Part shown: piece by piece, positions 14,772 through 32,000 of the stretch
Layout: each line of letters begins with the position of its first letter
How positions within the stretch are numbered: position 1 is the first letter of the stretch
Assembly: GCA_005191425.1 (NCBI GenBank)
Contig: SUPR01000003.1
Coordinates: forward strand, 30,001 to 62,000
Direction of reading: 5' to 3'
Length of the DNA stretch: 32,000 nt
From: Candidatus Helarchaeota ASGARD archaeon Hel_GB_B
GTDB lineage: Archaea; Asgardarchaeota; Lokiarchaeia; Helarchaeales; HEL-GB-B
The notes under the pieces: generated by a model
Told to the model about the DNA's origin: nothing
What the model saw: the letters and a program-made list of their open reading frames with translations, nothing else
Database searches by the model: none
Translations under genes and position numbers: made by a program

Positions 14772-15548
14772 ATGGATTTGAAAATAGTCTTCCATAAAAA
14801 ATTTTTTAATGTCTATACAAATGATCCAGCAGCAAAATCTGGAAGATTGGAACCAATTATAAAAGAATTAAAAAGGCACCCTTCTGAATATGAAATTATC
14901 GAGCCAAAACCTGCTACTAAGGAAGATATTCTTCGCGCTCATACATTAGGACATTACAATGACATTAAAACAACTGATAATATTCTTGACTATGCACTGC
15001 TCGCAGCTGGTGGTGCAATAGCCGCTGCTGAACTTGCTTATGAAAATTACCCTACATTTGCTGTAATTAGACCTCCTGGGCACCATGCTTCATCAGATAG
15101 TTGTTGGGGCTTTTGTTGGTTTAATAATATGTCTATTTCTCTCTTAAAATTACATTCAGAAAATAAAATCAAATCTGCTTTTATATTAGATTTTGATATG
15201 CATTTCGGAGATGGGAATGTCAATATTCTTAGAGAGAATAAGCATCTAATAAAAACTGAAATTCTCAATCCAATAAGTCAAACCGAACAAGATTATCTGG
15301 AAGAAATAAATAATGCCTTTAACAACGCTGGAAAATATGATATCCTAGCAGCATCTGCAGGATTTGATGAGTATATTAAAGATTGGGGCGGAAAATTAAG
15401 TACTAATGCATACAATCAAATTGGGAAGCTAATGAAAGATTTTGCAGAAGATAAATGTAATGGTAAAAGATTTGGGATATTAGAAGGTGGATATTATACA
15501 AAAGATCTTGGAATAAATGTTAATTCTTTTTGTCAAGGTTTTAAATGA
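14772..15548 (+). CDS. Zn-dependent histone-deacetylase-family (AcuC/APAH-like) deacetylase
   Basis: RPPGHHA, GFCWFNN, DFDMHFGDG, SAGFD and LEGGY. Starts 6 nt after the GNAT stop. Confidence 0.93.
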   Translation: MDLKIVFHKKFFNVYTNDPAAKSGRLEPIIKELKRHPSEYEIIEPKPATKEDILRAHTLGHYNDIKTTDNILDYALLAAGGAIAAAELAYENYPTFAVIRPPGHHASSDSCWGFCWFNNMSISLLKLHSENKIKSAFILDFDMHFGDGNVNILRENKHLIKTEILNPISQTEQDYLEEINNAFNNAGKYDILAASAGFDEYIKDWGGKLSTNAYNQIGKLMKDFAEDKCNGKRFGILEGGYYTKDLGINVNSFCQGFK

Positions 15549-16792: not shown

Positions 16793-17941
16793 ATGATCGC
16801 ACCTCATGGTGGAAGATTAATAAATCGAATTTTAGGTAAAAAAGTTTGTAAAGGATTAGAAACTCAAAAGGATGAATTTCCAAAACTCGTGTTAAATGAA
16901 GATAGAATAAAAGAAGTAAGAAACATTGCAAATGGTGTATTTAGTCCATTAGAAGGTTTTTTAACCCAAAATGATTTTTTATCAGTATTAGAATATGGTC
17001 GCTTATCTTCTGATGTTCCTTGGACAATTCCTATTGTTTTAGACATTGATATTGAGAAAAATGACAAATTTTCAGCCGGAGACGAGGTATTATTAATTGA
17101 CAAAGATGAAAAAATAATTGCTATTTTAGAATGCGAGGAATTATATCAATATGACAAAAAAAAGATGGCAGAAAGTGTGTTTGGAACTAACGATTTAGAC
17201 CACCCAGGAGTACGCCAAGTCTATTCCATGAACGATTATTTAATAGGTGGAAAGGTTTCAATGATAGAATGTACACCTACTGTTTTTCCGCAATTAAATT
17301 TAACACCAAAAGAAACACGCGTCCTTTTTAAGGCGAAGGGATGGAAGAAAGTTGTAGCATTTCAAACTAGAAATCCACCCCACATAGGGCATGAATATGT
17401 ACAAAAAACAGCATTAACATTTATGGACGGAATTTTTATTAATCCAGTGGTCGGAAACAAAAAGCCGGGCGATTTTAAGGACGAAATTATAATTGCATGC
17501 TATCAAGAACTAATTAAACAATATTATTTAAAAAATTCTGCGGTATTATCTATTTTTGAGACGCCTATGCGATATGCTGGACCAAAAGAGGCAATATATC
17601 ATGCAATTGCTCGAAAAAATTTTGGGTGCACTCATATAATTATTGGTAGAGATCATGCTGGAGTAGGCAATTATTATGGCTCTTATGACGCCCATAAAAT
17701 ATTTGATGAATACCCTGATCTAAAAATTGAGCCTCTTTTTTTCAGGTCATTTTTTAGGTGTACCAAATGTGGTACAGTTGTAAATGAAAAAATCTGTCCC
17801 CATGATGAGAAATTTCACATAAATTTTAGTGGTACCAAAATACGTAAAATGATCCAAAATAAAGTACTTATTCCAAATGACTTGATGAGACCTGAAATTG
17901 CAAAAATAATTTTAAATACAAAGAATCCCTTTGTTGAATAA
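16793..17941 (+). CDS. sat: Sulfate adenylyltransferase (ATP sulfurylase)
   Basis: PHGG.L, SPLEGF, HPGV, AFQTRNPPHIGHEY, MRYAGPKEA, H.IIGRDHAGVG and Zn site C..C...CPH. Confidence 0.97.
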   Translation: MIAPHGGRLINRILGKKVCKGLETQKDEFPKLVLNEDRIKEVRNIANGVFSPLEGFLTQNDFLSVLEYGRLSSDVPWTIPIVLDIDIEKNDKFSAGDEVLLIDKDEKIIAILECEELYQYDKKKMAESVFGTNDLDHPGVRQVYSMNDYLIGGKVSMIECTPTVFPQLNLTPKETRVLFKAKGWKKVVAFQTRNPPHIGHEYVQKTALTFMDGIFINPVVGNKKPGDFKDEIIIACYQELIKQYYLKNSAVLSIFETPMRYAGPKEAIYHAIARKNFGCTHIIIGRDHAGVGNYYGSYDAHKIFDEYPDLKIEPLFFRSFFRCTKCGTVVNEKICPHDEKFHINFSGTKIRKMIQNKVLIPNDLMRPEIAKIILNTKNPFVE

Positions 17942-17959
17942 ATAATTGGAGAACAAATA

Positions 17960-19357
17960 ATGTCTAATAAACTTATTGTTATTGGTTTAGATTGTGCTGT
18001 CCCTGATTTAGTTTTCAATAAATTCATTAATGACCTACCAAATTTAAGATATTTAATTGACCATGGCATTTCAGCTCCTATGCGGTCGTCTGACCCACCA
18101 ATTACTATTCCTGCATGGTTGATTATGTGTACTGGTGTTGATGCAGGATTTCTTGGACTTTATGGTTTTAGACATCGTTTAAATAATTCATATACAGACA
18201 TCTGGATAGCTAATACTCAAAAGGTAAAAATGCAGAAGGTATGGGATATTTTAGGCGACTTCGGATTAAAAAGCTGTCTAATAGGTATTCCCCCATCTTA
18301 TCCAATTAAAAGAAATGAAGGATGGACAATTTCTTGTTTTATTACCCCCGATACAACAAAGCAATATACTCATCCAAAAGAGTTGAAACAAGAAATTGAA
18401 GCATTAGTCGGCGAATATATGTTCGACGTTGAATTCAGGACTGATTTAAAGGACAAATTGATAAAAGGCTTATTTGAAATGACTAAAAGGAGACATAAGG
18501 TGATCAAATATCTTTTAAAAGAAAAACCTTGGGACTTTTTCATGTTTGTGGAGATAGGACTTGATAGAGTTCAACACGCGTTTTGGAAATTTTTTGACGA
18601 AAAACACATTAGACATAAACCTGGTAAATATTCTAAAGTAATTCCGGACTATTATCGCCTGTTGGACAAACAAATAGGTGAAATTCTTGATTTAATAGAT
18701 GATGATACAAAAGTTTTAGTAGTATCCGACCATGGTGGAAAAGCAATGAGTGGGTGCTTCTGTATAAATGAATGGTTGATAAAAGAAGGCTACTTAGTAC
18801 TAAGAAATTACCCACAGAAAATGACCCGTCTCGAAGAATGTGATATTGATTGGAGTAAGACTAAAGCTTGGGGCTGGGGCGGATATTATGCAAGGATATT
18901 TTTCAACGTTAAAGGTAGAGAGCCACAAGGTATTATTGATCCGGAAAATCTAGAGCAAGAAAAAATGGAATTGATTGAAAAAATTATGCAGATAAAAGAC
19001 CCTAATGGTCGAATAATGAAAAATAAAGTCTACGAGCCTAAAGATTTATACAAAATAGTTAAGGGCGATCCTCCCGACCTAATGGTCTATTTTGATGATT
19101 TATATTGGCGTTCCGCTGGGACTATTGGTCATAATAAATTATTTTTAGAAGAAAATGATACTGGACCCGATGACTTAGTCCATGATTATTATGGAATTTT
19201 TATCCTATATGACCCCAAAATTAAGAAAAAAATACGTCTCGATAATGTTTCAATATTTGATATATCTCCTACAATCTTAAATATCTTTGATTTAGATGTC
19301 CCCGGATACATGAAGGGAAACATAATAGGTTATGGGAAAAATAATGGTCAAGTATAA
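17960..19357 (+). CDS. Alkaline-phosphatase-superfamily (nucleotide pyrophosphatase/phosphodiesterase-like) enzyme
   Basis: VIGLDC metal site, PPITIPAW (Thr nucleophile position), DRVQHAFW, VVSDHG and final SIFDISPTIL. Confidence 0.9.
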   Translation: MSNKLIVIGLDCAVPDLVFNKFINDLPNLRYLIDHGISAPMRSSDPPITIPAWLIMCTGVDAGFLGLYGFRHRLNNSYTDIWIANTQKVKMQKVWDILGDFGLKSCLIGIPPSYPIKRNEGWTISCFITPDTTKQYTHPKELKQEIEALVGEYMFDVEFRTDLKDKLIKGLFEMTKRRHKVIKYLLKEKPWDFFMFVEIGLDRVQHAFWKFFDEKHIRHKPGKYSKVIPDYYRLLDKQIGEILDLIDDDTKVLVVSDHGGKAMSGCFCINEWLIKEGYLVLRNYPQKMTRLEECDIDWSKTKAWGWGGYYARIFFNVKGREPQGIIDPENLEQEKMELIEKIMQIKDPNGRIMKNKVYEPKDLYKIVKGDPPDLMVYFDDLYWRSAGTIGHNKLFLEENDTGPDDLVHDYYGIFILYDPKIKKKIRLDNVSIFDISPTILNIFDLDVPGYMKGNIIGYGKNNGQV

Positions 19358-19883
19358 AGGAGTTACCGTCTGGTTTACTGGACTATCTGGGTCTGGAAAG
19401 TCTACAATTGCGGACTCTTTAAAGGAAAAACTTAAATCTATGGGAATTAAAAGGGTTGAAAGAATTGACGGCGATGTTCTTAGAAAAACTTTATGCAAAG
19501 ATCTTGGCTTTACAAAAGAAGACCGCAATACGAACATTGAAAGAGTTATTTTTATTGCTAAATTATTGACTAGAAATGATGTTATTGTATTAACAAGCTT
19601 TATTTCTCCTTATAGAAAATTGAGAAATATTGGAAAAAAGGAAATCAAAAATTTCATCGAAGTTTACGTGAAGTGCCCTTTAGAAGAATGTATTAAACGC
19701 GACCCAAAAGGACTATATAAAAAGGCATTAAACAATGAGATCCAAAATTTTACTGGGATATCTGACCCCTATGAAGAACCAAAAAATCCAGACCTAATTT
19801 TATATACTGATAAAGAAACCGTTGATGAAAGCGTACAAAAAGTTCTCAACATAATCATAGAAAAAGGTTATATCGAAATTTAA
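19332..19883 (+). CDS. cysC: Adenylyl-sulfate (APS) kinase
   Basis: VWFTGLSGSGKST P-loop, DGD.LR, LGF..EDR..NI.R, FISPY, RDPKGLYKKA and FTGISDPYEEP. Overlaps the upstream gene; alternative ATG at 19344. Confidence 0.97.
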   Translation: MGKIMVKYKGVTVWFTGLSGSGKSTIADSLKEKLKSMGIKRVERIDGDVLRKTLCKDLGFTKEDRNTNIERVIFIAKLLTRNDVIVLTSFISPYRKLRNIGKKEIKNFIEVYVKCPLEECIKRDPKGLYKKALNNEIQNFTGISDPYEEPKNPDLILYTDKETVDESVQKVLNIIIEKGYIEI

Positions 19884-19968
19884 TATAAAATTTATTCAAT
19901 AAAGCAAAAATAATTTATTTGAAGCTATGTAATTTGTAATATCTTTTATTATATTTTAAAAAATAAAT

Positions 19969-21489
19969 TTAAATTTTTATTCTTCTTATAGCTTGCGTGA
20001 TTTTCTTTTTTTCAGTTAAATCTTTAAGATTTCTTTCGGAAATCTCCTTTTCTTTAAGGTGCATTACTATCTTATTTCTAAAGATGCGATTTAATTTTGG
20101 ATATTCCTTAATTACATTAATTTTTTCTTCAGGGTCGTTTTCTAAATCATACAATTCTTCATTCATAGTTTCTTCGTTTATAATATATTTCCATTTAGAA
20201 GTTCGATATGAAATTATCCTTTTAATGGATGGGTCGTGCAAATTTGAAAATCTTGTAATACCTTCTTTATGAAATGTTTCACTAAATACTCCTTTATGGA
20301 TTGGGTCATCTTGAATTTCCTGGTCGTAATAAATTAAGTCAGCAAAACTTTTTCCAGTGAAACTTGGCTCCGGAGGTAATCCTAACAATTTTAATATTGT
20401 AGGTGCAAGATCTCTCATATCTATGATATTTTTAATATCTTTTTGCTTTATTTTTTTAAGCTTTTTTAATTCATTACTAATGAAAATTAATGGAACTCTT
20501 AGTATTTCGTCATGTAATTGTGCATTATGCCCATATGCTCCTCTTTCATAGAATTCTTCTCCATGGTCTGCAGTGATAACTGTAAGCGTATTTTTTAACC
20601 AATTTCTATTTTTTCGATTTAATTTCTTAAAAAATCTCCTGATTTTTGCATCCGCATATCTAATTTCCGCATCATACAAATTTAATAACTTATCTGTCAT
20701 TTTATATTCGCGTAATATTTCCATATATTCAGGGTGTTCTCGTATATATTTTATTTCTTTTAATGTTAATTTGTCTGCTTTTATCTTTTTAAGAAATCTT
20801 TTATAAGGAAAATACGGATCATGGGGTTCCATTAAGTGAACCCATAAAAAATATGGTTTTTTCTGTCTATTTTCTCCCATATTGTATTTTTTTAACCATA
20901 CAAATGCTTTATGGAGTAGTATTTTTGCGTTTTCATAGTATTCTTTTCTCCCAATAAATTTCGTATAAAACGCAACTTGAAAATAATATTGAAACTTTTT
21001 GGGAATTTTTATACTTTGGAAAAAATTCATGATATTATTTAATAATGACCCTTTCGTCATAAACTTGCTTAATAAACTATTTTTAATTGTGCTATCGCTA
21101 TTAGTTAACATGGCATCATAAAATATATCAAATCCTCTATCATATCCATAAAATCTTGATAATAATGGCGTAGAGTGAATAGCAACTGTTATATATCCAC
21201 GACTCTGTAGAACTTCTGCTAATGTCGTCTTATTCTCAGGTAATGGTGAATATCCCCCTTGATGGAATGGATAAGTCGAAGTAAATATAGAAGAAAATGA
21301 TGGTGGAGTACAAGGACCATTTGAAATAACTTGTCGGAAAAAGAAACCCTTCCTAGCTAGTTTATCAAGATATGGTGTAGTCTTTTTTTCATAACCCATA
21401 ATACTTAGGTGATCTAACCTTAAGGCATCAATTGTAATTAATAACAAATTCATTTTTCGTTTATTCATTTTTTTACCCTTATCTTTCAT
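19969..21489 (-). CDS. Sulfatase-like hydrolase/transferase (AlkP superfamily) lacking the formylglycine motif
   Basis: LLITIDALR.DHL...GY, CTPPSFSSIFT, HLMEPHDPY, LYDAEI.Y.D, TADHGEEF.E.G..GH, LRVPL, ELYDL..DP.E..N. Confidence 0.9.
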   Translation of the reverse strand: MKDKGKKMNKRKMNLLLITIDALRLDHLSIMGYEKKTTPYLDKLARKGFFFRQVISNGPCTPPSFSSIFTSTYPFHQGGYSPLPENKTTLAEVLQSRGYITVAIHSTPLLSRFYGYDRGFDIFYDAMLTNSDSTIKNSLLSKFMTKGSLLNNIMNFFQSIKIPKKFQYYFQVAFYTKFIGRKEYYENAKILLHKAFVWLKKYNMGENRQKKPYFLWVHLMEPHDPYFPYKRFLKKIKADKLTLKEIKYIREHPEYMEILREYKMTDKLLNLYDAEIRYADAKIRRFFKKLNRKNRNWLKNTLTVITADHGEEFYERGAYGHNAQLHDEILRVPLIFISNELKKLKKIKQKDIKNIIDMRDLAPTILKLLGLPPEPSFTGKSFADLIYYDQEIQDDPIHKGVFSETFHKEGITRFSNLHDPSIKRIISYRTSKWKYIINEETMNEELYDLENDPEEKINVIKEYPKLNRIFRNKIVMHLKEKEISERNLKDLTEKKKITQAIRRIKI

Positions 21490-30811: not shown

Positions 30812-30880
30812 AATCGATCCCTGTGCAAGGGTGTCCTATTCAGAGCAGCTCTTTAAGTCTGAACAGTCATTCTATCGATT
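30812..30880 (-). promoter_or_regulatory. Eukaryote-type (Lokiarchaeota-like) SECIS element
   Basis: Minus strand: AAUCGAU-AGA-AUGA-CUGUUCAGA-CUUAAAGAGCUGC-UCUGAAUAG-GA-CA-CCCU(UGCAC)AGGG-AUCGAUU. It shows an AUGA/GA core, a 9-bp helix II (one G-U), AAA in the apical loop and a 7-bp helix I, directly after a UGA-containing vhuD. Confidence 0.88.
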
Positions 30881-31307
30881 TTTGCTTTTTTAATGGGTTA
30901 AGTCCCATTTTTTCCACATCTGCTGCGACTTTTTCAATGATATCTTTCAGTTTGTCAGCTTCGGCAGCTGATACAAAATGCATTTGTACCCGGTCTTCAT
31001 TAATTCCAATGTCTTTCAATAATTCTCTAACAAATTTAACTCGTCTGGCGCATGCTAAATTCCCTACTTTATATTCGCAATCTCCGGGATGTCAACCAAC
31101 GCTAATCACTGCATCTGCGCCATCTACTAGTCCCCGTAAGATGTGATTGACATCTACTCGACCTGTACATGGTAACCTAAGAATTCTTACTATCGGATTA
31201 TATTGTAGCTTAAGAGTCCCTGCTAAATCTGCAGCAGAATAGGAACACCTCATACATGCAAACATTAATACGACAGGTTGTTGCTCTTTAATTTTACATC
31301 ACTCCAT
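30867..31307 (-). CDS. vhuD: Selenocysteine-containing MvhD/VhuD (hydrogenase/Hdr 2Fe-2S delta subunit), 146 codons; absent from the ORF track
   Basis: Hand translation: ME(U)CKIKEQQPVVLMFACMRCSYSAADLAGTLKLQYNPIVRILRLPCTGRVDVNHILRGLVDGADAVISVG(U)HPGDCEYKVGNLACARRVKFVRELLKDIGINEDRVQMHFVSAAEADKLKDIIEKVAADVEKMGLNPLKKQKSIE*. TGA at 31094-31092 (codon 72) sits at a conserved Cys/Sec ligand position and family similarity continues past it. Confidence 0.95.
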
Positions 31308-32000
31308 TTAATTATTTTCTTTTAAAATTGCATCTATTTGATTTAATATTTGGACATCTTTCCACCATCTTAAATCTCGAGCTCCAATTGGACAAGATGC
31401 TACACAGATCCCACATCCTTTACATTTCATTTCATCTGTTGTTGAAATCATTTTAAAAGGGCTAATATCTTTAATTGATATTGCATCATATGGACATACA
31501 ACTTCACATAGACCACATCCAACGCATTTTTCTATATCAACATCAGCTCTGATCATCTCAATTTCGATTCCTTTATGTTTAATTGCTGAAATACTTGCTG
31601 CCCCACGGGCAAGTGCAATGGTATCTGAAATATCTTTTGGAAAGGTAGACGCAGTATAAATTCCTGGAACTTTTGTCTCAACAGGTTTAAATTTTAAGTG
31701 AAGTTCTTCGATAAACCCATCTTCCGATCTAGTGATACCAAGTATTTTGCATAAATTTTCTATATCATCTGGTGCTTCTTGTCCAACAGCTAAAATCACA
31801 TAATCTATTTTTAATTCTAATTCTTTTTTTAATAATGTATCAAATATTTTTACTATAATCTTATCAGAATCTATTGCTTTGCTAACTTTTGGTGGAAAAT
31901 TCGGTTCCCACCTTATATAATTGACTCCCATTAATTGAGATGTGATATAATTTTCTTCCATATATCTACCAAATGCCCTAATAGATTCTTTATAAAGTAC
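31308..32000 (-). CDS. hdrA: Heterodisulfide reductase subunit A, C-terminal part (5'-truncated by the window edge)
   Basis: Frame open to the window end (VLYKESIRAFGRYMEENY, the LY.DIR..G motif). Also DYVILAVG, DGFIEELHLKFKPVET.VPGIY, PKDISDT, CVGCGLCEVVCPY and CKGCGICVASCP. Confidence 0.95.
   Translation of the reverse strand, partial: VLYKESIRAFGRYMEENYITSQLMGVNYIRWEPNFPPKVSKAIDSDKIIVKIFDTLLKKELELKIDYVILAVGQEAPDDIENLCKILGITRSEDGFIEELHLKFKPVETKVPGIYTASTFPKDISDTIALARGAASISAIKHKGIEIEMIRADVDIEKCVGCGLCEVVCPYDAISIKDISPFKMISTTDEMKCKGCGICVASCPIGARDLRWWKDVQILNQIDAILKENN

Follow-up and report, generated by a model that had tools for sequence, protein, structure and literature searches.

The locus described here lies on the minus strand of a window of 32,000 nucleotides (the whole stretch of DNA that was analysed) from the Asgard archaeon Candidatus Helarchaeota Hel_GB_B, and its features are collected in Table 1. 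When the segment 31307-30867 is translated with the TGA at 31094-31092 read as selenocysteine (Sec, U), the result is a continuous, MvhD-like sequence of 146 residues. The Pfam family FlpD (PF02662), named “methyl-viologen-reducing hydrogenase, delta subunit”, matches residues 13-135 of this reading over profile positions 1-123 of 123, with E 2.9e-43 and 147 bits against a cut-off of 22.3. Solved MvhD/VhuD chains in the PDB match at E 3.2e-35 to 2.5e-30, and the closest named homolog, from Candidatus Helarchaeota, shows 70% identity. The cysteine set of the family (CxxC, PC(T/S)G, and GCHxGDC) is present as C13, C16, C42, U67, and C72, numbered from the ATT start discussed below. The N-terminal motif is C-M-R-C, so that site 1 is Cys and the second Sec of a C-x-x-U motif is missing. 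A preliminary description of this DNA had placed an in-frame TGA within an MvhD-like protein, with Sec at the G-U-H-x-G-x-C site and Cys in the first CxxC, and the profile match and alignments bear out all three points. It had also called the gene hidden, which holds for ORF callers: standard ORF calling yields fragments only, 31092-31265 (57 aa) and 30867-31019, and standard callers break vhuD into 57-aa and 38-aa pieces. The gene is not hidden altogether, however, as two NCBI assemblies of near-identical genomes already hold a 132-residue product that spans the TGA.

Table 1. Features at the vhuD locus, in window coordinates.
Feature	Position	Strand	Basis or remark
hdrA, 3′ end (upstream gene)	31308..32000	-	runs past the window, contig C118:61308-64382
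Shine-Dalgarno-like GGAGTGAT	31298..31305	-	contains the “codon 3” TGA; GTGAT at -10 of ATT
Probable start codon ATT	31290..31292	-	12 codons before the first Cys; aligned with six ortholog starts
MvhD/VhuD coding sequence	30867..31292	-	from the probable ATT start, 141 codons, stop TGA; Pfam FlpD, PDB chains, ortholog start alignment
Predicted Sec codon UGA	31092..31094	-	residue 67 from the ATT start, in G-U-H-P-G-D-C; invariant Cys column
SECIS, three-way junction	30812..30880	-	MFE fold; same architecture in 5 orthologs; pattern rare genome-wide
SECIS closing helix	30880-30874 with 30818-30812	-	MFE fold
SECIS AUGA core	30870-30867	-	begins 224 nt 3′ of the Sec codon
Stop UGA	30867..30869	-	last three letters of the SECIS AUGA core
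SECIS stem	30866-30858 with 30844-30836	-	9/9 pairs, one G-U; sequence and fold
SECIS apical loop, 13 nt (CUUAAAGAGCUGC)	30857-30845	-	AAA inside, last base C
SECIS GA	30835-30834	-	after the stem
SECIS side hairpin	30831-30819	-	MFE fold
Coiled-coil ORF, 101 aa	30471..30776	-	Lys/Glu-rich; no Pfam match; follows vhuD in G001, G003, G005

The gene upstream encodes a tandem double HdrA of 1024 aa that has no in-frame TGA and carries Cys at the canonical Sec site in both halves. A separate Cys-type mvhD precedes it (C118:61308-64810). In four orthologous loci (G001, G002, G005, and G006), that mvhD is fused to the double HdrA in one ORF of ~1150 aa. With an mvhD before it and vhuD after it, the double HdrA has an MvhD module on either side, one of the Cys type and the other with Sec. 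Downstream of vhuD, the order is the 101-aa ORF, which shares its last 8 nt with the start of the next hdrA-like gene, then a 448-aa HdrA-like protein, a 706-aa HdrA-MvhD fusion, and a 747-aa ferredoxin-domain protein, with HdrC-like and HdrB-like (CCG) genes farther on. Possibly the 101-aa ORF encodes a small subunit of the Hdr cluster that has escaped recognition. No hydrogenase genes are found in the hdr cluster, so that “MvhD-type adaptor of an Hdr complex” describes the product more safely than “hydrogenase subunit”. Genes for sulfate activation and a sulfatase lie beside the cluster (window positions 16793-21489): an ATP sulfurylase (16793-17941), then a phosphodiesterase-family protein, an APS kinase (19332-19883), and, on the minus strand, the sulfatase (19969-21489). 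Elsewhere in the genome there are further relatives, some 11 FlpD homologs in all. At least two of these carry two Sec residues and a third, on C167, shows Sec at site 1; the motif C-N-K-U occurs in the paralogs on C26, C41, and C167. The vhuD at 31292-30867 is the only copy seen in the genome that combines Cys at site 1 with Sec at site 2.

We propose that translation probably starts at AUU 31292, to judge from sequence comparison, so that the gene would span 31292-30867 and encode 141 residues, as long as the MvhD proteins of known structure. Against this, AUU seldom serves as a start codon, and the NCBI call is ATG 31265. In the alignment, six orthologs start at the same position, 12 codons before the first Cys, with ATG in G002 and G003, TTG in G004, G006, and the metagenome contig L066, and GTG in the metagenome contig L065; a purine-rich ribosome-binding motif precedes each of these starts. 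The ortholog of the same genus, G001, has ATT at this aligned position and no canonical start from the upstream stop to the first Cys, and it retains GTGAT at -10 of the ATT. In such cases automatic annotation either settles on an ATG farther downstream or finds no start. Genome-wide, GTGAT occurs 96 times in the 30 nt before the ATGs of long ORFs, and 74 of the 96 occurrences are at -11 to -8, a pile-up that marks this as the local Shine-Dalgarno position. Across the nine codons that follow the ATT, comparison with G001 gives ~4 synonymous changes on ~5 sites and 4 non-synonymous changes on 19.

The same selenoprotein might instead start at ATG 31265, with the N-terminus M-F-A-C-M-R-C and 132 residues. 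This ATG is the sole canonical start that gives an open frame, it is the one used in the NCBI gene call, and MFAC is the N-terminus of some annotated Helarchaeota homologs (P0006 and P0007). We nevertheless consider it an unlikely start. A protein begun there would lack positions 1 and 2 of the Pfam profile and the larger part of the first strand, and solved homologs have at least eight residues ahead of the first Cys. G001 has TTA at this codon, which therefore is not the start there. The nine codons upstream of ATG 31265 evolve like coding sequence, and the ATG itself is not preceded by a Shine-Dalgarno-like motif, the GTGAT being placed at -10 of the ATT instead.

Another start was implied by the preliminary description, which had given the gene the boundaries 30867-31307, had noted that the hdrA stop abuts an ATG, and had seen no other lesion in the frame. 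The left end stands, and the hdrA stop TAA (31310-31308) does directly adjoin ATG 31307. The frame from this ATG, however, meets a second TGA at codon 3 (31301-31299), contrary to the absence of other lesions, and ATG 31307 is thus very probably not the start. For it to be so, translation would be coupled to hdrA termination and the codon-3 UGA would be a second Sec, in M-E-U-C. The abutting of TAA and ATG fits this proposal, Mariotti et al. (PMC4989117) argue that recoding by a lokiSECIS can extend to UGAs far upstream, and the codon-3 TGA is conserved in G001. Yet G001 has no start codon from the upstream TAA to the codon-3 TGA, which consequently cannot be coding there; in both genomes this TGA falls within the GTGAT that starts 10 nt ahead of the ATT, where Shine-Dalgarno motifs usually lie, and in the alignment the other orthologs have no residue opposite it. 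A start at ATG 31307 is thus a far-fetched proposal, and we retain AUU 31292 as the probable start.

The UGA at codon 67 lies in the peptide GADAVISVGUHPGDCEYK, that is, in the context V-G-U-H-P-G-D-C. In an alignment of 22-23 homologs, C16, C42, C67 (the UGA position), and C72 are invariant. The solved VhuD chain 9sfi_K has X, a non-standard residue, at the second Cys of the CxxC and at the column aligned with the UGA. Judging from this conservation, U67 would be a direct ligand of a [2Fe-2S] cluster. As for the codon itself, the preliminary description had named TGT or TGC in the reads as the result that would speak against Sec; independent assemblies and run contigs all have TGA. The DNA, including the TGA, is identical in one ENA and two NCBI assemblies, and Logan contigs from four metagenome runs of four studies (hydrothermal vent and marine sediment, with the possible source run excluded) cover the codon with zero differences. 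No RNA data set stood among the public runs listed for this DNA. This uniformity across assemblies and run contigs excludes a sequencing error.

Could the TGA be a nonsense mutation, leaving a pseudogene or split gene of which only the 57-residue fragment is made? The 57-aa and 38-aa fragments returned by standard ORF callers are what such a gene would give, and comparison with relatives makes this scarcely credible. TGA occupies the aligned codon in G001, in three genomes of the same order (G002, G004, and G006), and in L065 and L066. These six copies, from four genomes and two metagenome contigs, all have a SECIS as well, of the form AUG(A/C)-stem-loop-(G/A)A; the orthologs G003 and G005 have TGT at the position of the Sec codon and no SECIS, so that the SECIS goes with TGA and is missing with TGT. 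The genome of our gene has the full Sec machinery. The conserved H-x-G-D-C part is such that no start codon could recover it. On the 3′ side of the UGA, our gene and that of G001 differ by ~33 synonymous and 19 non-synonymous changes (pN ~0.12, pS ~0.78); on the 5′ side, there are 31 synonymous and 15 non-synonymous differences, with dN/dS 0.07. The signal of purifying selection after the UGA argues that the downstream part is translated, and thus against a pseudogene. Among 41 related genomes, the form with one TGA is confined to this orthologous group. A search of genome contigs for relatives gave one Bathyarchaeia match only, and a search of metagenomes gave two loci.

A SECIS about 220 nt downstream of the UGA had been predicted, and the AUGA that begins at 30870 is 224 nt after it. 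The published lokiSECIS, or eSECIS-like type I element, has AUGA, a 9-bp stem, an A-rich loop, and GA or AA, and lies near the end of vhuD (PMC4989117, PMC11227280); its apical loop is 11 nt long, starts with adenines, and ends in G. A strict Loki-SECIS pattern has eight matches on both strands of the 3.5 Mb genome, against none in a reversed control and two in a shuffled one, and one of the eight sits exactly on the vhuD stop codon. Two further strict matches, at C41:5764 and C41:6360, flank a two-Sec vhuD paralog, one on each side, a layout in which hdrA and vhuD would each have an element of their own instead of sharing one. Another, at C167:2158, lies 5′ of the vhuD copy on C167.

Unconstrained single-sequence folds of all five UGA orthologs give the same three-way junction with differing helix and side-hairpin sequences. 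Compared with G001, the stem has one pair changed on both sides and one pair changed on one side, and the closing helix has one pair changed on both sides. G001 has a TAA stop five codons earlier and keeps the AUGA. The apical loop of G004 has 11 nt, running from AAAAA to G, an exact fit to the published loop. In the copies of G002 (L034), G006 (L036), and L065, the core is AUGC...AA in place of AUGA...GA/AA, with stem, loop, and side hairpin kept; this core is either a tolerated variant or a sign of weaker Sec decoding in these copies. In the Cys orthologs, G003 and G005, there is no SECIS-like element and the next gene directly adjoins.

Fold stability is not distinctive, the z values against shuffles being -1.26 for the three-way element and -0.46 for a shorter piece, neither of them significant. 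Rfam gave nothing at gathering score over the window. RNAalifold on a MAFFT alignment of five SECIS regions returned 0 pairs, since two subgroups are misaligned, and the single-sequence folds were used in its place. SECIS types of other lineages were considered as well. A bacterial SECIS would be a hairpin directly 3′ of the UGA within the coding sequence; none stands there, and the stretch of 68 nt that begins at the UGA is less stable when folded than its shuffled versions (z +0.76). For a euryarchaeal one, the fold does not contain the GAA/A asymmetric bulge between 10-bp and 3-bp GC stems.

The preliminary description had made its reading depend on tRNA-Sec and SelB in the genome, and both are present. 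EFSec (SelB) is encoded on contig C9 with 276 bits and is adjoined by SepSecS with 482 bits, both above the curated cut-offs. A PSTK-like gene on C9 scores 156 bits, below the equivalog cut-off, and SelD, with an in-frame TGA, is at the end of contig C31. BLAST searches with tRNA-Sec sequences from relatives located the tRNA-Sec gene at C9:14937-15125, at a distance of ~7 kb each from EFSec/SepSecS and the PSTK-like gene. Three introns split it (14955-15000, 15024-15047, and 15082-15106, in the D arm, anticodon loop, and T loop). Its acceptor stem is 9 bp and its T stem 4 bp long, the anticodon is UCA, the variable arm is long, and the discriminator is G; after splicing by hand, aragorn calls it tRNA-SeC. 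Other searches for this tRNA gave less. The Rfam tRNA-Sec model, run over the whole genome, gave only a 33-bit tRNA-Cys, and Rfam with E up to 1 gave nothing relevant in 40 kb of C9; aragorn on unspliced DNA missed the tRNA-Sec whether or not its intron mode was on. A strict structural scan for tRNA-Sec returned false matches only, and a list of GC islands was too unspecific.

That the UGA is read by a near-cognate tRNA (Cys or Trp), or under a reassigned code, without Sec, is highly improbable. Suppression is known in general, and nothing specific favours it here. TGA terminates 253 of the 1572 long ORFs of the genome (16%) and therefore is not reassigned; dedicated Sec machinery and a SECIS are at hand, and the UGA falls in a Cys column, as expected of Sec/Cys exchange.

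We conclude that the locus is very probably a functional gene for an MvhD/VhuD-type Fe-S electron-transfer protein of an Asgard archaeon, with UGA 31094-31092 decoded as Sec. In the mechanism that we envisage, translation would most likely begin at AUU 31292 behind the Shine-Dalgarno-like GGAGUGAU. The mRNA just past the coding sequence would form a lokiSECIS, with an AUGA...GA kink-turn core, a 9-bp stem, an A-containing loop, and a three-way junction. Together with EFSec and Sec-tRNA(Sec), this element would recode the UGA 224 nt upstream, and the terminal UGA inside the SECIS core would still act as a stop. Selenium would thereby replace sulfur in one of the four invariant Cys residues, which presumably hold a [2Fe-2S] cluster. 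Homology and the gene order beside hdrA suggest that MvhD/VhuD would bind this cluster and hand electrons to HdrA, with the FAD of the adjoining HdrA-type flavoprotein, here a Cys-only double HdrA, as acceptor.

The main importance of the finding is for the annotation of such genomes. Since ORF callers split the gene and miss the tRNA-Sec, both the selenoproteome and the capacity for Hdr-type electron bifurcation are undercounted. The Asgard HdrA-VhuD genes and their lokiSECIS are of interest as a link between archaeal and eukaryotic Sec decoding, and the present gene adds one further instance. From the one-Sec form, the three-way SECIS, and the probable AUU start one could learn more about the requirements of an Asgard SECIS and about start selection in these genomes.

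Among known systems, the VhuD proteins of the Methanococcales (M. jannaschii, M. voltae, and M. maripaludis; 9sfi_K) share with our protein the family, the length, the Sec at the second site in G-U-x-x-x-x-C, and, as predicted from sequence, the role of a [2Fe-2S] adaptor that feeds HdrA. They differ in having a second Sec, in C-x-x-U, and a SECIS of the euryarchaeal GAA_A type with an AUGA; moreover, the hdr cluster of our window is without adjoining hydrogenase genes. The Cys-type MvhD proteins of methanogens (5odc_D and 7bkb_F) belong to the same family (E 2.5e-30 to 3.2e-35) and match at all conserved Cys positions; in contrast to the gene described here, they have Cys throughout and no SECIS.

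The closest resemblance is to the HdrA-VhuD selenoprotein pairs of the Asgard archaea, which share a lokiSECIS. In Lokiarchaeota, Mariotti et al. described in 2016 (PMC4989117) a Sec-VhuD gene that follows hdrA directly and has one eukaryote-like SECIS at its end, and a 2024 survey of Asgard archaea (PMC11227280) covers 227 Sec-using genomes, with FrhD/MvhD/VhuD in 57%. As in these pairs, there is a single eukaryote-like SECIS at the end of vhuD, with the stop UGA beside or inside it, hdrA ends with UAA, and the lineage is the same (Lokiarchaeia/Helarchaeales). Unlike in these pairs, our VhuD has one Sec, at site 2, with Cys at site 1; its partner is the 1024-aa tandem double HdrA without Sec, so that the SECIS serves the vhuD UGA alone; and the start is probably AUU. 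The SECIS departs from the lokiSECIS of the two papers in its loop of 13 rather than 11 nt, and in its closing helix and side hairpin, which are not described in PMC4989117 or PMC11227280. Whether the one-Sec VhuD variant, the Cys-only double HdrA, the conserved AUU/Shine-Dalgarno start, and the covarying three-way SECIS together form a lineage-specific combination is, in our judgement, an evenly balanced matter. The finding is correct but ordinary, an arrangement already published for Lokiarchaeia/Helarchaeales (PMC4989117, PMC11227280). Its local peculiarities, namely the site-2-only Sec, the Cys-only double HdrA, the probable AUU start, and the three-way SECIS, are of modest interest and leave the overall picture unchanged.
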